DNA of 64,000 nucleotides from Naegleria gruberi (taxonomy: Eukaryota), in the NCBI GenBank assembly GCA_000004985.1, contig GG738873.1. The stretch is one strand, 5' to 3'. Below the pieces are notes generated by a model. The model did no database searches. It saw nothing but the letters and a program-made list of their open reading frames with translations, and had not been told where the DNA came from. Shown here in pieces: positions 16,401 through 51,388 of the stretch. The translations under genes and the position numbers were made by a program. The first letter of the stretch is position 1. Each line of letters begins with the position of its first letter.

Positions 16401-17651
16401 ATGGAAAAACAAGCATTTGTGAATGTGCAAGCAAATTCACTCGAATTTCTTGCTAAATATTTGGAGGAAAACAGACAAACTCCAATGGATCATGTAATTA
16501 TTAATAATGAATTATATTCAATTATAGCATCGGGAGGAAATAGAGGGTGCACCATTTACAAAACAACTAATTTTGAAAGCAGCACCAAATGGCAATCCAC
16601 CTTGATCGGAGAATTTGAATTAATTAAAGAGAATCAATCTGATGATGATTTATCCCAAATGTATTGCCTCTCTATTGATAGGAATATTTATATAATTACC
16701 ATCTCTAATAATTCAATGAGTCGTATTCATCGAATTTCTATTCAAAAGTCTGATGAAGAGGAAAATTATGTGGAAACCTTGTTTGAGGATAGTGGTGGTG
16801 ATTTTATTGGAATTGATCCAGGGCTGATTGCAGATTCAAAGAGGAATTGTTTATATTTCATGTTTGGATTGACTGTGGCTGATTCGGCCAAGAAGAATAT
16901 TACCAGATTTGATATTAATACTGGATCTTTTTCTGTTATTGGTGAATTGGATAGGGAATTCTACTGTTTATCCTCAACATTTTGGAAAGATAGATATATA
17001 ATCTTAGTTGGAGGTCTAACAAATTTGACACCTTCATCAGATATTTTGGCTTTTGATGTTGAACAAGGAATTTGGAAGCAAATCTATAGAGCTAAATCAA
17101 TGCCAGTAATTTATCCACGATACATGTCAGGAATTACAATGGTTTCCAATAATTATGCATCTCAATTTCATCCTGAAATTCCAAAAGATTCCAATACTGA
17201 TACGATATTTATTTATGGTGGATTTTTGGATTATGAAGTGGAAGTTAGTGACCATTCAAGATTTTTCATTAGTAGACCCTCTCACGAAGTCATTCTCCAC
17301 TATTTGAAAGAAAGTGAATGGATCGATAATATGGAATCTGATTGTGAGAAGAGAATCCCAATCAGTTTGACTGATATTTGTACACCAGAAGATAGAAAAC
17401 TTGAGAAACTACACATAAGAAGAATAAAAAGTGGCATAGAGGATGACGATGCAGAAGACAGCAATGAATTCAAGATTTTACCCACTTGCACATTTTCCAC
17501 AATACTCCCTCTGAAAATTAGAGGAAGGCAGGAATTATTAATTTTCAGAAATACTGAACAAGTCTTAAAAATTCAATTATTCCACAATAATCCATTCCAC
17601 AGAGAGTCGATGAATAAGAACCCAGATGTCTCAATTCTTTTTTCAGAATGA
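16401..17651 (+). CDS. Kelch/beta-propeller-like hypothetical protein
   Basis: 416-aa ORF with Kelch-like 'ILVGG', 'IFIYGGF' blade motifs; terminated by TGA at 17649. Confidence 0.5.
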   Translation: MEKQAFVNVQANSLEFLAKYLEENRQTPMDHVIINNELYSIIASGGNRGCTIYKTTNFESSTKWQSTLIGEFELIKENQSDDDLSQMYCLSIDRNIYIITISNNSMSRIHRISIQKSDEEENYVETLFEDSGGDFIGIDPGLIADSKRNCLYFMFGLTVADSAKKNITRFDINTGSFSVIGELDREFYCLSSTFWKDRYIILVGGLTNLTPSSDILAFDVEQGIWKQIYRAKSMPVIYPRYMSGITMVSNNYASQFHPEIPKDSNTDTIFIYGGFLDYEVEVSDHSRFFISRPSHEVILHYLKESEWIDNMESDCEKRIPISLTDICTPEDRKLEKLHIRRIKSGIEDDDAEDSNEFKILPTCTFSTILPLKIRGRQELLIFRNTEQVLKIQLFHNNPFHRESMNKNPDVSILFSE

Positions 17652-19162: not shown

Positions 19163-19411
19163 TTATGGCAAACCAGGCCAATCCTCTACATATTGGATCT
19201 TAAAATCTGGCCAATCTTCAACAATTTGAATCTTATAATCAGGCCAATCTTCAACAATTTGCCACTTTCCAACACTATCTGGCCAATCATCAACTTGTTT
19301 AACCTTGAGATCTGGCCAATCTTCAACAATTTGAACTTTGTAATCTGGCCAATCTTCTACGAATTTGATTTTGCCATAGATTTGGGCAATTTGATCTTTG
19401 GAAATGGTCAT
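19163..19411 (-). CDS. Small repeat protein: seven tandem 11-residue 'VEDWPDxKxQI' repeats
   Basis: 82-aa ORF MTISKDQIAQIYGKIKF[VEDWPDYKVQI][VEDWPDLKVKQ][VDDWPDSVGKWQI][VEDWPDYKIQI][VEDWPDFKIQY][VEDWPGLP]; ATG start, TAA stop. Confidence 0.5.
   Translation of the reverse strand: MTISKDQIAQIYGKIKFVEDWPDYKVQIVEDWPDLKVKQVDDWPDSVGKWQIVEDWPDYKIQIVEDWPDFKIQYVEDWPGLP
19172..19365. repeat. 33-bp tandem repeat (x6-7) encoding the EDWPD units
   Basis: periodic 'ggccaatcttcaacaatttgaa(t/c)tt..' 33-nt units visible on the plus strand. Confidence 0.7.
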
Positions 19412-19529: not shown

Positions 19530-19892
19530 TTACAATGAATTTATTTTTAAAACTACCCGTGCCTGAACAATACGCCCTTGAATTGTGTATGGAAATAATC
19601 TGTCGTATCTGTTTGGAATTTTGTAAAAATCAACAACTTCCTTATCAATTTCTATTTTGGATTCATCTTCGAGTAATTCTATTGCTGATGGTCTCTTATC
19701 AACTTCCTCTTCGAGCATTAAAGGAAGAACTCTTTTGATGGTTTCATTTTCAATTTCAAGTTCGTTCAAGCATTGAACTACATTCGAATGATTTTCTAAA
19801 TTTCTTACTCGTTTTCTAGATAAAACTTCCAACATTACTAATCCTAATGAGTAAATGTCACTTTCCGGAGATTCAACAATTCTGGTTGTCAT
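19530..19892 (-). pseudogene. Protein kinase C-lobe fragment (subdomains VIII-XI only), truncated at a 5S rRNA gene
   Basis: 'TTRIVESPESDIYSLGLVMLEVL..KRPSAIELL' matches the GTxxYxAPE / DxWSxG / ..RPs.. kinase subdomains VIII, IX, XI; no room for subdomains I-VII because the 5S gene starts 14 nt upstream and the 14-3-3 gene follows. Confidence 0.55.
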
Positions 19893-19906
19893 TAAATAGA
19901 TAAAAA

Positions 19907-20026
19907 GACTACAGCACCACAGGTTCCCAAGTTGTCTCCAACCTCAGTACTGATGTGGCTCGACGATGCTTAACTTCTCAAATCGGACGGGATGAGGTGC
20001 ATTCATCGTGATATGGCCGTAGCCAT
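19907..20026 (-). rRNA. rrn5: 5S ribosomal RNA gene (copy 1)
   Basis: Reverse complement reads ..GGCTACGGCCATATCACGATGAATGCACCTCATCCCGTCCGATTTGAGAAGTTAAGCATCGTCGAGCCACATCAGTACTGAGGTTGGAGACAACTTGGGAACCTGTGGTGCTGTAGTCTTTTT; helix I pairing 5'GGCTACGGC/3'GCTGTAGTC; followed by T5 Pol III terminator (plus 19902-19906). Confidence 0.9.
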
Positions 20027-20077: not shown

Positions 20078-20999
20078 CTAATCATCATCTGGTCCAATTT
20101 CAGTTTCACTCGACCACAAAAATAAATTATCCTTCAACAATTGTAGTATCAGTACAGCATCCCTTTCATCACCATATTCATCTTGCTTTTCCAATAATTC
20201 CTCAATGTGTGTCATGGCTAGATCGAATTCTGGACGTGCAATACTAATTGCCTTTCCAACATCAAACATTATGTCAGAATAAAAATATGAATAGTTTAGA
20301 ATAAGCCCCAATCTAATAGAATTCGTGCAAGGTAAGAGATTGATCAGCTCATATGATTTTTCATAACTTTCCAAAGCTTTAGCTTTCCAATCTGAAATTC
20401 TAAATCTATAATCCACATTGTAAATATATTTGAAAAAATCTCCTTTAACTTTCCAATAAAAAACAGAATCCACCAATGACAAACTTTCCACCTTCAAAAC
20501 TTGATCAATAATCTCATTAATTTCATAACAATAGTGCTCTGTTTTTTCCTGAATTTCTTTCACAAATCTTTCACACAACCCAACTTGCCAATCTTCTCCC
20601 TTATTCTCATGTCTACTCTGCACATTCACAACACTTCTAAAAGCCTTACTATAATCATATAATACATTTTTATAGGCAACCACTAATAGAGATCGTTCCT
20701 CAATTGTGGGAATGGGTTCATGAACCGATTGAATAATTATTTCCAAGATTAAACTCTTCATTTCCGAAACCATATCTTGATCATCAATATCATCAAATAT
20801 ATCAATTATTATTATCATCATCAATTATTATTAATAATAATAATTAATAGCAATGATGATGAATTATTATTATATTGGATGTTTAAATATCATCAAACTC
20901 ACCTTCATAACGACCTGCTTGTTCACATAATTTTGCATTGAATAATTTCTCATTCCGAGAGGCAATGAAAGGTTGTTGTAATGATGGTGATAAAGACAT
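20078..20999 (-). CDS. Highly divergent 14-3-3-like protein; 2 exons (20999..20893, 20776..20078)
   Basis: Exon 1 'MSLSPSLQQPFIASRNEKLFNAKLCEQAGRYE' (cf. AKLAEQAERYDDM); exon 2 'ERSLLVVAYKNVL', 'VFYWKVKGDFFKYI', 'NSIRLGLILNYSYFYSDI', 'AVLILQLLKDNLFLWSSE' match 14-3-3 helices 3, 7, 8, 9; minus-strand donor GTGAGT at 20892, acceptor ..gatcaag at 20777. Confidence 0.75.
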
Positions 21000-21433
21000 T
21001 TTTTTTATTAATATTTTGTAAAGAATTGAAATTACAATTGCAAACATTTTCAAACAATCAAGAAAAATTGTAAACAGAAAATACACATGTTAAAGTTTAG
21101 TATTGAATTACAATAATATTAAAGAATGTTACAATTTGCATCACAAAGTTTGCCATTGAAGGAATTTACTCCTTCAGCTAGTTCTATTTTACAAAATGGA
21201 ACCTCATGATTGAATTTTATTAATTTTTTAAAAGGAATCTTAAAAAGTAATTCAATAAAATTTAGTCCTTAATCTTAAAATGGAATTTCGAATAAAAAGT
21301 AAACTAAACTTTTTTCCAACAATTTTTTCTCAATAGTACCTAGGTAGTGACAATCGGAGCCTTTCACCTCCATTTATTCTAAATCTGGCATAAAACTGTT
21401 ACACTCCTGTCAAAATTCAACGTTAAAAAAAAA

Positions 21434-24400
21434 ATGTCAACAGTAACCAAAGTCAACTCTCTGTTGCTTTGGGCTCAGAATGCCACAAAAAACTACGACA
21501 ATGTAGAAATTAAAACCTTCTCATCGCCTTCGTTTGCTAATGGCTTGGGTTTTTGTGCTATTATTCATCACTTTCGTCCGGATTTAATTCCCTATGGTAA
21601 GTAGTGATGATTTTTTGTATAAACCAAGTTGTGTTGATTTTTGTGATGATTTTTTGTGTTGATTTTATTTGAAATGGTGATTTTGTGGTGTGATTGGGTG
21701 TGATTCATTTCGGATAACACTTTCGAATATGTATTGTTTCGAATACAGATACATTGACCACTTTGAATGCCAAACACAATTTAGATTTGGCTTTTAGAGT
21801 AGCAGAACATGAATTGGGATGTACACAATATTTGGAAACAGAAGATTTGTTAAATTGGTTAGTAATCAACATCATCATTGTGAAAAGTATTAACAAACTT
21901 TGGACGAAATTAATTCGAAACTTGGGGAAAAAAACAGTGCTCGACCAGAACCAAAAACCATTCAAATGCAACTCAATGAATATCGAAGAGTTTTAGGAAG
22001 TGCCAATGAAATTCATAAAAAGAATTCTGATTTTGGAGATTTAGTCAAAGATTACGAAGATGCACAATCATTGAAGAGATCGGCAACAATGCCACCAAAG
22101 AGTTTTGAAAATCCGAATACTTTATTGAATTCTTCATCGTCTTCCTCTCCTCAGGGAGCTTCATCTGCCAATTTGGGAAGCAAACTTTCAATTCAATCGA
22201 GTGGTGGCAGTTCAGATGATCCAAAGAAGGGAATTGTTGCAAGACAGAAAGAGGCCTATTTGCAAGAAACTAAACCATCGATTACCATTACGAGTAGCTC
22301 ATCTCAATTTGATCAATTAAAGAATATGGATGATGCCAAGAAGAAAATTAAAGAATTATACGAACAAGTGTCCAGTTTGAGAGATGACAGTGATAGTATT
22401 AGAAGGGAGAATAGTGATTTGAGTATGAAATTCAGGGAAGCTCAACATTTGAAAGATGAAACTGAATTGGTATTTAAACAACAAAATGAAAATCTCAAAA
22501 AGAAAATTTCACAACAACGTCAAGAAATTGAGGACGAGAAAAATTCCAAACTCTCACTGGAAACATCAATTACCAAATTGAAACAAGAATTGGAAACTTT
22601 GAAAAAGGAAAGCACTGAATACAAGAAGAAGATTGAAACTTTGGAAAAGTTACAAGAATCTAATAAGGAAAGTTCTAAATCTGCTTCAACTGATCTTCAA
22701 AAACAAGTTGCCGAGCTCAATAATCTACTCAAACAAAAGGAACGTGTCATTTCTCAATTCGAAACTGAAAAAATTTCAACTTTCAAGGATTTACAAAACA
22801 AACTTGCTGAAAAGGAAAAGGATATTCAAAGTTTGAAGAATTCTCTTAAAAACCTAACAGAGGAAGCTGAAAAGACTAAGATTGAAAAGGAATCTTTAAT
22901 GAGTGAAATGAGTCAACAAGAAGGACTTTCTGGTGAGCTCAGCAAATTACAAGACTCACTGAAACAAATTACAATGGATAAACAAATTGCCGAAAGAAAA
23001 GCTCAAGACGTTGAAATGCAAAGAAATGATATTACCCAAAAACTCACTCAAGTACAAAAAGAACTTGAAGACTCCAAAAAGAACCTTTCTACCAAGTTGA
23101 CCGAATCTCAAAAATTAGAACAAGAATCAAAGAGTTTGAAAGAGCAAAATTCAAAACTCTCTCAAGAAATTTCAGAAAAAAACAAGTTACTCGAAAAGGA
23201 AAAACTCAATTTGAAGGAAGGTAACGAAAAGGTTCTCACTGAAAAACAAAAACTTGAAAAGGAAGTTGAAGATTTGAAAAAGCAAATTGCCAAATATATT
23301 GAAACTTCAAAGGAATTGGATAAGGCCAACAATGAAACCAAGAAATTCAGTGATATGGTCAACAAGCTCACCACCGAAGTTTCCACACTAAAGAAGGAAA
23401 AGGAAACTCTCAAATCAGAAAAGGAAAATGTTGAGCTCTCAATGAAACGTCAAGCAACTGAACTAGAGGAAAAGTATCAAGAAAAAATCGATCAATTTTT
23501 GGAAAAGAACAAAATGTCCTCAAAACAACAACAATCAGTTCTTGATTTACAAATTGAAGATCTCAGAGATCGTATTGAAGACCTCAAGAGAGAGAAACAA
23601 CTCGTTAAAGATGAGCTTAATCAAGTAGAAAGTGCCAAGAATCATGAGATTACAGAATATAAGAACAAGATTAGTCAACTTGAATCAGATCTCTCTAAAA
23701 AGTCCTCTGTCTCTCCATCCGTTGCCAATTTACCACAACTCATCGAACAAGAAAGAAAGGAAAGATTTGTTTTGGATCAATCCATTCTCTGTTTTGAAAA
23801 TTGCACATTCTCTAACCAAATTCCAACACCAGTCAAGTCCATCTATCATGCTCTCAATTTCTGGTTAGAATCTAGTGAAACATTTGGAGTCAATCTTGTC
23901 AATTCTCTCAGTTACAAGTTTGGTTCTTACATTACCTATGATTTACAAAAATCTGCTTACTGGCTCAATGTCATGATTAGAATTTTACACTTGTTGAAGA
24001 ATGAATCAGAATATGAAAAGAAGATCAAGTCCATTCTCAAGAATAACATTAACGAAAAGCAATTTACTGCCCTCACCACTAACGAATCAATTACAAAGAA
24101 ATCAGAATTCCTTGTACTTTCTCATTTCTCACTTTCTAATGATGGAAAAGTTCAACAACCATCCATTGACAAGTTTTTAATTTCTCTCTCACAACTCATT
24201 TATGATTCCTATTTTGAAATTATTAAGAGTATGCTCTTGAAGGCCAAACCTTTGATTTTAGAGAAATTGTTTGGTGTTACAAAGAATAATCCAACTCCAA
24301 CCTTAGGTAAAGTTAGTGGAGATGTCAAGATTGATGTAATTGTAAAGAATATGGCTTCATGGATGGATCAAATTAAGGATAGTTATTTGGATGCTCGTTT

Positions 24401-25231
24401 GATTATTCACATGTTTGAATCTTTGGCTAACTTGATGGATTCTTACATCTTTAATCAATTTATTACTTTTATCAGTTCTGAGAAGGAAAAGACAAGAAAT
24501 GCCAATCAATTAAGAGATTCCACTATGAATCATGCCATTCATCTCAAGATGTCTGTTTCATTCTTGGAAAGTTTCTTCTTTGAGGAGCATTTGACAGCTG
24601 GTCTTGATATTCAAAATCTTTTCCATCAAACAAGAGTATGTATTTATTTCAATATCATTATTTACAATTAATTCCAAAAAATTAATAGGAAGCTGCTGAT
24701 GTTTGTGTACTAGGTCAAAAAGATTTACTTCAAAAAGGAAATGATTTACGTGAAATTGTCTGTCCTCATTTGGTTACTTCACAAATCTCTGTCTTGCTAT
24801 TGGAAAGTACAACTAGTGCTCAAAACTTGGTTGTTCCAACTCTGGCACCATGTGGATTTACTGACCCAACTACTTTTGCTAAACAAACATCACCACTCTT
24901 TGATTTTGAATCCAAATTTATGACAATTCAATCCTTACAAACAGTTCAATATCCATCCATTTTTGATAAGAACAGACAAGAGTATCCATTCCTGTATCAT
25001 TTGGCAAGGAAGAGTTCAACATCTTCTTCGACAGCAACAGAAGAAGAGGACGATGTCAGTAATTCGTCATGGACTTCTCCATCCAAACAAAACATTCTCT
25101 CCAGCAGCAGTTCAGCAACATCATCCACCAACTCATCTCCTTCCTCTTCTACAAGTCAACAAGAAAAGAGAAGAGGTCAAAGAATGGAAAGATATCAGAA
25201 ATTAGATATGAATAATGGACTTTTCGAATAA
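21434..25231 (+). CDS. Calponin-homology (CH) domain protein with long coiled coil and C-terminal globular (DIL-like?) domain; at least 4 exons
   Basis: Exon 1 (21434..21596) '[47 protein letters not shown]' is a canonical CH domain, continued after intron in '[37 protein letters not shown]'; 21900..24650 is heptad-rich (E/K/L/Q) coiled coil; C-terminal about 250 aa globular; introns at 21597..21747, ~21858..21937, 24651..24693. Confidence 0.65.
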
Positions 25232-36159: not shown

Positions 36160-36232
36160 GCCCGTCTAGCTCAGTCGGTAGAGCGCAAGGCTCTTAACCT
36201 TGTGGTCGTGGGTTCGACCCCCACGGTGGGCG
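36160..36232 (+). tRNA. tRNA-Lys (anticodon CUU)
   Basis: GCCCGTCTAGCTCAGTCGGTAGAGCGCAAGGCTCTTAACCTTGTGGTCGTGGGTTCGACCCCCACGGTGGGCG folds as cloverleaf (7-bp acceptor with 2 G-U pairs, D-arm GCTC/GAGC, anticodon loop CTCTTAA, T-arm GTGGG/CCCAC); near-identical to metazoan tRNA-Lys-CTT. Confidence 0.9.
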
Positions 36233-45604: not shown

Positions 45605-46267
45605 AGTTTTAAGAAAAGATAAAGTTGCAATATGTCTGAGTTTTCTGGATTTTCAAAAAGTGAAATATTCCGAATGTTAAATTGAAATACTTATTACCAG
45701 GTTAGCTAGCCATAAAATTTGTCATCATACATGCTCGGAATTTGACAAATACTCAATTTTACTCTGATTGAGATTTCTTTGTGCAATGATTTTTCAATTA
45801 ATTAAAAGAGTTAGGTGGCTCCTAATCTGACGGTTTGTGCAATGTCTGATTGAAACCAAATCAAAGTGAGCAATTAAGCTCAAACCCTGATCCCTACAAA
45901 AAATTGAGTTAATAGTAGATGCAACCCGTGAGCTGCTTTCAGCTATTAAACTGAAAAGAAAAGATACTACACTCGATCAAAGCCAATTGGCCGAGAAAGA
46001 TGGTTTTGAGAATTGCATAAGGAACAGAGTATTTATTCTGTTGGTTGTGGAGTGAAGAATGGCAAAATGTTTGTGGTATTTTAATAAATTTTAATGCCTT
46101 GTTCGACTATTGATATTGAACATGTAGCGAATCTTAATAATCAATATTTATGATGGAGCAGTTCAATCAGAACTTGGAAAGAATGTGAGAAGCAAACTTG
46201 ACTAACAATTAAGGGGGATGCATTGATAAGTAAAACGTGAACTAGTGAAAAAAACAAATAAACAAAA

Positions 46268-46387
46268 AGACTACAGCACCACAGGTTCCCAAGTTGTCTC
46301 CAACCTCAGTACTGATGTGGCTCGACGATGCTTAACTTCTCAAATAGGACGGGATGAGGTGTATTCATCGTGATATGGCCGTAGCCA
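46268..46387 (-). rRNA. rrn5: 5S ribosomal RNA gene (copy 2)
   Basis: Same 5S sequence as copy 1 with 3 substitutions (..GAATACACCTC.., ..CCTATTTGAG..); T-run terminator on minus strand (plus aaaaa 46264-46268). Confidence 0.9.
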
Positions 46388-51268: not shown

Positions 51269-51388
51269 AGACTACAGCACCACAGGTTCCCAAGTTGTCT
51301 CCAACCTCAGTACTGATGTGGCTCGACGATGCTTAACTTCTCAAATCGGACGGGATGAGGTGCATGAATCGTGATATGGCCGTAGCCA
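51269..51388 (-). rRNA. rrn5: 5S ribosomal RNA gene (copy 3)
   Basis: Same 5S sequence; variant ..CACGATTCATGCACC.. in loop B region; oligo-T terminator (plus aaaa 51266-51269). Confidence 0.9.

Follow-up and report, generated by a model that had tools for sequence, protein, structure and literature searches.

A divergent 14-3-3 paralog of Naegleria gruberi with substitutions in the phosphate clamp and the dimer interface

Described 14-3-3 proteins and the Naegleria gruberi locus

Few eukaryotic proteins are as strongly conserved as 14-3-3 proteins, whose Arg-Arg-Tyr phosphate clamp is regarded as invariant. In 14-3-3 zeta, substitution at Arg56, Arg127 or Lys49 strongly lowers the binding of phospho-ligands. 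Clamp, groove and interface positions are given here in human zeta numbering. The phosphate-binding triad consists of Arg56, Arg127 and Tyr128, and the two subunits of 14-3-3 dimers are joined by an Arg18-Glu89 salt bridge (PMC3154893). Divergent protist paralogs standing beside one canonical epsilon-like copy have been described, namely Cp14a and Cp14b of Cryptosporidium parvum and the second 14-3-3 of Plasmodium (Brokx et al. 2011, PMC3154893). Cp14a failed to bind any mode I-III peptide that was tried, and its Arg-Arg-Tyr triad is present in the sequence but mis-oriented; the protein also lacks the Arg-Glu dimer salt bridge and dimerises with a Cys-Met pair in its place (PMC3154893). Such divergence was stated to be unseen outside Apicomplexa (PMC3154893).

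We analysed NAEGRDRAFT_34237 (XP_002676271.1, D2VI47), a gene lying in a 64-kb stretch of Naegleria gruberi DNA, hereafter the window. Its product is a member of the 14-3-3 family. It matches Pfam PF00244 with 163 bits (cut-off 33.2), residues 22-254 falling on profile positions 2-223 of 223, and PDB 14-3-3 chains match it at E about 1e-35. AlphaFold2 predicts the nine-helix 14-3-3 fold (pLDDT 88.9, pTM 0.84), and the top Foldseek matches of this model in the PDB are 14-3-3 chains with a TM of 0.84-0.90, normalised by target length. The canonical N. gruberi 14-3-3 (NAEGRDRAFT_80121, D2VIW7), human zeta and epsilon and plant GF14 belong to the same full-length Pfam family and share the same predicted fold, but the product is only 33-39% identical to them. 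The canonical N. gruberi protein, which scores 356 bits on the Pfam profile, is 35-36% identical to the product, and its corrected distance from it is 1.28, compared with 0.07 from the canonical protein of Willaertia and 0.53 between the canonical Naegleria and human proteins. The initial annotation, made from the DNA alone, had proposed a very divergent 14-3-3 paralog that keeps the skeleton motifs AYKN, KGDxxxY, IRLGLxLNxSxFY and LLxDNLxLW; the degree of divergence is borne out and every one of these motifs was found in the product. More broadly, of the 95 columns that are nearly invariant in the family the product retains 59, helices G and I being nearest to the canonical protein (11/16 and 12/18 residues identical). 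Compared with the canonical proteins, the B-C and H-I loops carry insertions, and the canonical long acidic tail has as its counterpart a short one ending in GPDDD, with about 10 residues after helix I (SSETEIGPDDD), which are acidic at the extreme end and of low pLDDT.

Gene structure and the intron

The gene lies on the minus strand and runs in two exons, with an unbroken reading frame, from an ATG at 20999 to a TAG stop at 20078-20080; the spliced product has 264 aa (Table 1) and no entry was found for it in the protein collection searched. Exon 2 is 100% identical to the public protein, which identifies the host as Naegleria gruberi (Heterolobosea), so that the dictyostelid framing of the initial annotation, with fttB as the reference, was mistaken. 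The public model XP_002676271.1 lacks exon 1 and begins at Met38. Exon 1 yields a tblastn HSP of its own at 20960-20904 and agrees with the canonical helix A in 9 of 16 residues.

Table 1. Features of NAEGRDRAFT_34237, in positions of the window
Feature	Position	Strand	Description
Exon 1	20903..20999	-	ATG + 32 codons + base 1 of codon 33
Exon 1 product	20903..20999	-	MSLSPSLQQPFIASRNEKLFNAKLCEQAGRYE; helix A, dimerisation helix
Intron	20776..20902	-	127 nt, GTGAGT...AAG, phase 1, 18% GC
Exon 2	20078..20775	-	codons 33-264 + TAG stop 20078-20080; helices B to I of the 14-3-3 fold
Helix-3 segment AYKNVLYDYSKAFR	20636..20677	-	residues 66-79
Helix-4 interface residues	20543..20557	-	Lys85 to Glu106 (20555-20557); Glu89 to Lys110 (20543-20545)
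Helix-5 motif KGDFFKY	20426..20446	-	residues 143-149
Helix-7 groove motif IRLGLILNYSYFYSD	20273..20317	-	residues 186-200
Helix-9 groove motif LILQLLKDNLFLW	20114..20152	-	residues 241-253
C-terminal GPDDD	20081..20095	-	GPDED in the paralog; takes the place of the canonical long acidic tail

A low-complexity insertion, MMMIIIIDIFDD, had been reported at the exon junction. It is absent from the protein, as MMMIIIIDIFDD is the in-frame read-through of the 3' part of the intron. The sole AG downstream of the donor is at 20777-20776, hence there is one usable acceptor, and splicing at this site gives ...AGRYE/DMVSEMK..., which aligns ungapped with the canonical ...AERYD/EMVQSMK...; this unique splice solution restores helix A. 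Retention of the intron leads to a stop after 38 codons. As an acceptor, AAG is weaker than CAG and TAG, which occur in the paralog and in a canonical Naegleria gene. The position and the phase of the intron are common to NAEGRDRAFT_34237, its paralog and this canonical Naegleria 14-3-3 gene, the paralog being compared through a metagenome copy (L001 251-297) and the canonical gene through another assembly (L004).

A splice variant restoring GARRxSWR or KGDYxRY would contradict the reading of an altered protein. None was found, given the single usable acceptor and a tblastn search of the canonical protein across the 64-kb window, which matches this locus alone and reveals no alternative exon. 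The altered residues of helix 3 and helix 5 lie deep within one continuous exon.

Phosphate clamp, peptide groove and dimer interface

Conservation was assessed in 276 retrieved family proteins and in an alignment (A2) with 116 canonical-type sequences. The canonical helix 3 reads AYKNV(I/V)GARR(A/S)SWR and the product has AYKNVLYDYSKAFR at this place: Lys49 and Arg60 are kept as Lys68 and Arg79, while Gly53 is replaced by Tyr72, Arg55 by Tyr74 and Arg56 by Ser75 (codon 20648-20650). In helix 5, where KGDYYRYL has become KGDFFKYI, Arg127 is replaced by Lys148 (codon 20429-20431) and Tyr128 is kept as Tyr149. Both of these changes had been noticed in the initial annotation and stand as described. 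Arg occupies position 56 in 269 and position 127 in 272 of the 276 family proteins, and both positions are 100% Arg in the 116 canonical-type sequences of A2. The clamp, taken as Lys49 and the Arg56-Arg127-Tyr128 triad, is hence incomplete, with Arg56 and Arg127 replaced and Lys49 and Tyr128 kept. Unlike Cp14a, where the triad is present in the sequence, the Naegleria protein has the first Arg of the triad truly replaced.

The backbone-binding and hydrophobic residues of the groove are all retained (8/8), with Leu172 and Asn173 in helix 7 (Leu192 and Asn193) and Leu216, Ile217, Leu220, Asn224, Leu227 and Trp228 in helix 9. Lys120 and Asp124 are likewise shared with the canonical proteins. Changes close to the groove comprise, besides the Tyr at Gly53, Val176 to Tyr196, Glu180 to Asp200 and Pro165 to Ser; in addition Glu131 is replaced by Asn. 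The qualification of the protein as non-phospho-binding goes beyond this evidence, as Lys49, Arg60, Tyr128, Asn173, Asn224 and Trp228 are kept and the change of Arg127 to Lys is conservative. On residue identities, a weakened or re-specified clamp would suit the data no less well than a non-functional one, and the term neofunctionalised describes something we infer from the sequence.

At the dimer interface, Arg18 and Asp21 are kept as Arg30 and Asp33. Position 89 is Glu in 100% of the 116 canonical-type sequences and is occupied here by Lys110, and the Arg18-Glu89 pair is thus missing. Given that Arg18 is kept, the inter-subunit salt bridge is charge-reversed on one side. The loss of this bridge does not by itself rule out homodimers, because Cp14a dimerises without it. 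From the identities of the residues, a homodimer would contain four like-charge contacts, and pairing with the canonical N. gruberi 14-3-3 in a heterodimer would preserve two of the four salt bridges; the protein may therefore serve as the deviant subunit in an asymmetric dimer having one strong and one weak site. The ground for this dimer prediction is the conserved helix A alongside the charge-reversed Glu89 and Lys85 positions.

The two-gene subfamily and alternative explanations

The sister paralog is the N. gruberi "14-3-3 protein-like protein" D2VEK1 (XP_002677642.1), which is 44% identical, lies on a different scaffold and has a public model likewise devoid of exon 1. A variant of D2VEK1 that is 98.7% identical is present in metagenome ERR1078381. 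Among about 15 billion proteins D2VEK1 is the one closer relative, and in exhaustive phmmer over 1.84 billion representatives followed by BLAST re-ranking only D2VEK1 and its 98.7% variant resemble the query more closely than they do human zeta. A profile search scored the two paralogs at 462 and 415 bits; canonical proteins follow at 189 bits, and nothing else scores higher. Among the matches listed in this search, N. lovaniensis and Willaertia each give one canonical-type 14-3-3 only; an N. fowleri protein falls in the canonical N. gruberi cluster. No ortholog elsewhere was obtained by word-indexed search, by phmmer over the 1.84 billion representatives or among the profile matches listed, nor by scans of JGI metagenomes with peptide patterns and a subfamily DNA pattern (YWKxKGD-N45-DWK). 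The word-indexed search missed D2VEK1 when run with the query and was nearly empty when run with the paralog; having missed the paralog, it is not exhaustive on its own. In NJ bootstraps NAEGRDRAFT_34237 and D2VEK1 are sisters in 100% of the replicates. Their long branch joins other divergent sequences with a bootstrap of at most 30%, so that the deep placement is unsupported and no grouping with other divergent 14-3-3 sequences is supported in the NJ tree. As for lineage-specificity, which the initial annotation had proposed to check by phylogeny, the subfamily was seen in the N. gruberi lineage only.

Both paralogs share a set of derived states, namely Arg55 to Tyr, Arg56 to Ser/Thr, Glu89 to Lys, loop insertions and a C-terminal GPD(D/E)D, as well as the motifs KSLIL, ERFxKxxQEK, EIIDxxL, YWKxKGD, VDY and DWKxKxLExYE. 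They are reciprocal closest relatives and, with these shared derived residues and insertions and the common intron position, form a subfamily. The clamp and groove of D2VEK1 are more degenerate (Arg60 to His, Tyr128 to Asn, Asn173 to Ser, Leu227 to Asp), Arg18 is Leu, and Arg127 is kept. The subfamily would have originated when a 14-3-3 gene was duplicated at the DNA level, and very fast evolution would have followed, the clamp Arg56 and the salt-bridge Glu89 being lost before the split of the two copies and Arg127 changing to Lys later, in the NAEGRDRAFT_34237 copy.

The reading that we prefer, and to which we give a somewhat better than even chance, is that of an intact two-exon gene in a two-gene, fast-evolving N. 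gruberi subfamily, whose product would bind through the groove and have a phosphate site that is weakened or re-specified. Extended peptides would still be bound in the groove and, judging from the residues at the phosphate site, standard pSer/pThr motifs would be held weakly, or binding would in part be independent of phosphorylation. Alternatively, NAEGRDRAFT_34237 could encode an ordinary phospho-Ser/Thr reader, for which Lys68, Arg79, Lys148 and Tyr149 suffice, perhaps aided by Lys76, the divergence being client specialisation. This is rather unlikely in our estimation. It agrees with a basic or Tyr side chain at four of the five clamp positions, with the retention of Asn173, Asn224, Trp228, Lys120, Asp124 and most hydrophobic residues of the groove, and with helices G and I being the most canonical-like ones. 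Nevertheless, the near-universal Arg at position 56, without exception in the canonical-type set, implies a strong constraint wherever phosphate is bound, the mutagenesis of 14-3-3 zeta points to reduced phospho-ligand binding, and a bulky Tyr stands at both the Gly53 and the Val176 positions of the groove. D2VEK1 has gone further still, and its loss of Arg60, Tyr128 and Asn173 suggests that phosphate binding is not a constraint on the subfamily. A more far-reaching view is that both N. gruberi genes could be lineage-specific pseudo-readers, in which phosphate recognition was given up while the fold, the hydrophobic groove and helix A were kept, and which would act as phospho-independent scaffolds or as partners in asymmetric dimers with one site. 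We regard this view as tentative and doubtful. If it is true, asymmetric dimers would tune the reading of doubly phosphorylated clients.

It is quite improbable that the gene is a non-functional relic, that is a duplicated copy, silent or nearly so, which drifts under relaxed selection and has acquired no stop yet. The extreme divergence (corrected distance 1.28 from the canonical N. gruberi protein, itself 0.07 away from its Willaertia counterpart), the disappearance of functional residues that are invariant elsewhere, the weak AAG acceptor and a 3' end cramped by a 5S rRNA gene 54 bp beyond the stop are all compatible with decay; a literature search by accession found no publication mentioning the gene and no expression record, and other Naegleria proteomes gave no ortholog among the profile-search matches listed. 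However, indirect arguments weigh against decay. A stop-free run of 264 codons has a chance of about 2e-9 at this base composition, and drift that altered about 64% of the residues would almost certainly have broken the frame. Neither the donor, the lone acceptor nor the phase is damaged, and splicing with them recovers helix A, which is well conserved; the fold-determining core is preserved in a product that AlphaFold2 folds confidently, and the frame, the intron and the shared derived motifs have been kept independently in two paralogs. Furthermore, dN between the paralogs (0.54) is well below dS (about 1.6), which gives a dN/dS of about 0.34 or lower, a rough average over both lineages that is no proof of present-day constraint on NAEGRDRAFT_34237 because dS is saturated. 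NAEGRDRAFT_34237 is probably functional, with a phospho-clamp that its residues suggest to be weakened or altered, a state for which the divergent 14-3-3 proteins of Cryptosporidium set a precedent. As to a foreign gene acquired from a virus or by horizontal transfer, or an artefact of assembly or contamination, the lack of orthologs in other sequenced Naegleria among the profile-search matches listed and the unsupported deep position in the tree would be in keeping with it, but it is hardly conceivable: GC (0.33) and GC3 (0.27) agree with those of the window and of D2VEK1, the spliceosomal intron coincides exactly in position and phase with that of a canonical Naegleria 14-3-3 gene, the gene lies among ordinary eukaryotic genes, between 5S rRNA, U2 snRNA and tRNA genes, and the search of about 15 billion proteins gave no nearer relative from any source, viral or other. 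We rejected a foreign or viral origin on the base composition and the intron shared with a canonical Naegleria gene.

The 14-3-3 set of N. gruberi comprises one canonical copy, almost unchanged between Naegleria and Willaertia, and two fast-evolving copies without Arg56 and Glu89. The phenomenon of the degenerate 14-3-3, known from Apicomplexa, is now extended to Heterolobosea, and the pair offers a natural experiment on the capacities of the 14-3-3 fold deprived of its standard clamp. Its importance is modest, as it concerns a variant inside a well-known family whose functional role is predicted from sequence. The public models of both paralogs need correction for the missing exon 1 and helix A ahead of structural or interaction work.

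The best 60 of 124 PDB sequence matches are all canonical-type, including C. parvum Cp14-epsilon (2npm), and gave no sign of a specific kinship to Cp14a or Cp14b, 2O8P and Cp14b being absent from these 60. The likeness to the apicomplexan Cp14a and Cp14b would then appear to be functional and analogous only. A replaced clamp is also seen in Anaeramoeba flamelloides KAJ3445754.1, with Lys49 to Leu, Arg56 to Met and Tyr128 to His; this protein is unrelated to the Naegleria pair in the NJ tree and is nearer to the canonical family, with a Pfam score of 246 bits.

Gene structure and public models

The divergent 14-3-3-like gene consists of two exons which, after splicing, give an open frame of 264 codons (table). 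The donor GTGAGT lies at 20902 (-), thirty-two codons past the ATG, and the sole AG between it and the downstream coding sequence is found at 20777-20776. Excision of this 127-nt intron (18% GC) unites ...AGRYE with DMVSEMK..., and the junction aligns without gaps to ...AERYD/EMVQSMK... of the canonical protein; with the intron retained, reading from the ATG hits a stop after 38 codons. Hence the low-complexity insertion MMMIIIIDIFDD, which the initial annotation had placed in the protein, is the 3' end of the intron read in frame; it lies in the mechanical ORF 20078-20824 and is spliced out. An in-frame ATG is also present upstream at 21047, with no stop in between (21000-21047, -), and would add the 16 N-terminal residues MFAIVISILYKILIKK. 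The start at 20999, which follows an A-run, appears to fit homolog length better.

Exon 2 matches N. gruberi XP_002676271.1 (NAEGRDRAFT_34237, UniProt D2VI47) with 100% identity; therefore the window is heterolobosean, and the dictyostelid origin proposed earlier has to be abandoned. The record (227 aa, on a scaffold of 462 kb, annotated as "predicted protein") begins at Met38 and is devoid of exon 1 and helix A, and no mention of this accession was found in the literature searched. The public model of the N. gruberi paralog, XP_002677642.1, is shortened in the same way: it begins MMVEIK and is devoid of exon 1 (helix A), which lies 5' of a short phase-1 intron. The divergent gene is thus already in databases, yet undescribed and mis-modelled.

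Family membership and altered residues

The spliced protein matches the Pfam 14-3-3 profile with 163 bits over positions 2-223 of 223, compared to 356 bits for canonical N. gruberi NAEGRDRAFT_80121 and 150 bits for the paralog, and PDB 14-3-3 chains match it with E about 1e-35. Its AlphaFold2 model (118-sequence alignment) displays nine helices, with a pLDDT of 88.9 and a pTM of 0.84, and the Foldseek matches to this model are solved 14-3-3 proteins (TM 0.84-0.90 on target-length normalisation). Sequence and predicted fold place the gene in the 14-3-3 family. This family has as its signature the Arg-Arg-Tyr triad and the Arg-Glu dimer bridge (PMC3154893), and the Naegleria gene departs from both.

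Residues were mapped in human 14-3-3 zeta numbering and checked against the DNA. In the phosphate clamp, Lys49, Arg60 and Tyr128 are kept (Lys68, Arg79 and Tyr149) while Arg56 becomes Ser75 and Arg127 becomes Lys148. Position 56 is Arg in 269 of the 276 retrieved family proteins and position 127 in 272, so that these two key observations of the initial annotation are correct and far from chance. The groove carries Gly53 to Tyr72, Val176 to Tyr196, Pro165 to Ser185, Glu131 to Asn152 and Glu180 to Asp200. A further finding is a charge reversal at the dimer interface, where Glu89 (Glu in 261/276) is replaced by Lys110, Lys85 by Glu106 and Tyr82 by Phe103, with Arg18 and Asp21 kept as Arg30 and Asp33. 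Positions 56, 127 and 89 are 100% conserved in the 116 canonical-type sequences of the alignment. Furthermore, the protein keeps Asn173, Asn224, Trp228, Lys120, Asp124, Leu172, Leu216, Ile217, Leu220 and Leu227, and matches the family at 59 of 95 columns with a conservation of 90% or more.

With the first clamp Arg gone, a Lys in place of the second and two bulky Tyr in the groove, affinity for standard phosphopeptides would probably be lowered and not lost outright, since Lys49, Arg60 and Tyr128 are kept along with the Asn residues that hold the backbone. Hence the proposal of a non-phospho-binding scaffold stands as regards the altered clamp and goes too far as regards binding. A homodimer would set Arg30 against Lys110 and Asp33 against Glu106, both at two sites; pairing with the canonical protein would retain Arg30-Glu95 and Asp33-Lys91. 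The interface charges, together with the conserved helix A, suggest a preference for heterodimers, the weakest step of this mechanism since Cp14a of Cryptosporidium can form homodimers without the Arg-Glu bridge (PMC3154893).

Functionally, the nearest precedent is given by two divergent paralogs of Cryptosporidium, Cp14a and Cp14b. In the authors' screen, Cp14a bound no mode I-III peptide among those tested, whereas a peptide modelled on the phosphorylated C-terminal tail of Cp14b stabilised that protein; in their view such divergence is confined to Apicomplexa (PMC3154893). Degenerate clamps are also found sporadically in other protist or metagenome 14-3-3 family proteins, among them P0159, P0265 and P0194 (KAJ3445754.1 of Anaeramoeba flamelloides, 14-3-3-like); examples of the changes are Leu for Lys49, Met for Arg56 and His for Tyr128. 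The phosphate clamp has thus been lost several times independently in the family.

Sister paralog, origin and probable maintenance

Searched exhaustively with phmmer, 1.84 billion cluster representatives gave one protein at 44% identity, P0130, whose 90% cluster includes N. gruberi XP_002677642.1 (D2VEK1), which bears the annotation "14-3-3 protein-like protein". When all retrieved proteins were re-ranked by BLAST, the only ones nearer to the query than to human zeta were this paralog with its variant, and the query. With a profile made from both paralogs, these score 462 and 415 bits and all other proteins 189 bits or less; among the matches listed, N. lovaniensis and Willaertia each give only a canonical-type 14-3-3. 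The canonical N. gruberi cluster includes an N. fowleri protein, and no further relatives were found in JGI metagenome scans. A word-indexed search with the query missed the paralog, which phmmer ranked third; negatives from that search alone do not amount to absence.

Neighbour-joining unites the two paralogs as sisters with 100% bootstrap support, and the long branch obscures their deeper placement. Corrected distances are 1.28 between the divergent gene and canonical N. gruberi and 1.02 between the paralogs, compared to 0.53 for canonical N. gruberi versus human and 0.07 versus Willaertia. Derived states common to both are Tyr for Arg55, Ser or Thr for the lost Arg56, Lys for Glu89, insertions in loops B-C and H-I, and GPD(D/E)D at the C-terminus; the losses in clamp and salt bridge are therefore older than the paralog split. 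The paralog is more degenerate (Arg60 to His, Tyr128 to Asn, Asn173 to Ser, Leu227 to Asp, Arg18 to Leu). Its gene structure, taken from metagenome contig L001, shows that an exon 1 is present, though unannotated, and is followed by a 47-nt intron identical in codon position and phase to that of the query, and a canonical Naegleria gene (L004) has an intron at the same site. Given this common position, the divergent genes go back to an ordinary 14-3-3 gene with an intron, duplicated at the DNA level.

Although the acceptor is AAG and there is no ortholog for a clean selection test, the gene is probably live rather than a relic. The probability of 264 stop-free codons by chance is about 2e-9 at window composition, splice signals and phase are undamaged, and helix A, encoded by the unannotated exon, shares 9 of 16 residues with its canonical counterpart. 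Moreover, the two copies have retained frame, intron and shared motifs over about one substitution per site, with dN = 0.54 and a saturated dS of about 1.6 (Nei-Gojobori), hence dN/dS of about 0.34 or lower. GC and GC3 resemble the surroundings.

Genomic neighbourhood

Features of the window, with the paralog's exon 1 for comparison
Feature	Position	Strand	Details
14-3-3-like gene	20078-20999	-	ATG at 20999, TAG 20080-20078
Unannotated exon 1	20903-20999	-	paralog (L001): 163-250
5S rRNA gene	19906-20024	-	Rfam 98-105 bits (range over three copies)
5S rRNA gene	46268-46386	-	same range
5S rRNA gene	51269-51387	-	same range
U2 spliceosomal snRNA gene	45810-46003	-	Rfam 109 bits
tRNA-Lys(CTT) gene	36160-36232	+	
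82-aa ORF	19163-19411	-	almost all tandem 9-10-residue repeats, (V/I)(E/D)DWPD(Y/L/F)K(V/I)Q
ORF	19530-19892	-	Pfam Pkinase positions 175-260 only (C-terminal lobe), 18.5 bits, below cut-off
Calponin-homology domain exon	21434-21604	+	
Long coiled-coil ORF	21900-24671	+	
Kelch-repeat protein gene	16401-17651	+	

The first 5S gene follows the 14-3-3-like stop codon after only 54 bp and is itself followed, 13 bp on, by the ATG of the next ORF; the 3' end of the 14-3-3-like mRNA must therefore be very short or overlap the 5S gene. The ORF starting directly after this 5S gene represents a truncated kinase remnant or else an exon with no obvious upstream partner, and the 82-aa repeat ORF gave no match in a Pfam search. 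The calponin-homology exon and the coiled-coil ORF presumably form one gene with an intron between them, divergently oriented from the 14-3-3-like gene. The three 5S copies have in common only the 5S sequence and a T-run terminator, and thus stand alone as dispersed genes and do not form a repeated unit; one of them is about 265 bp from the U2 snRNA gene.
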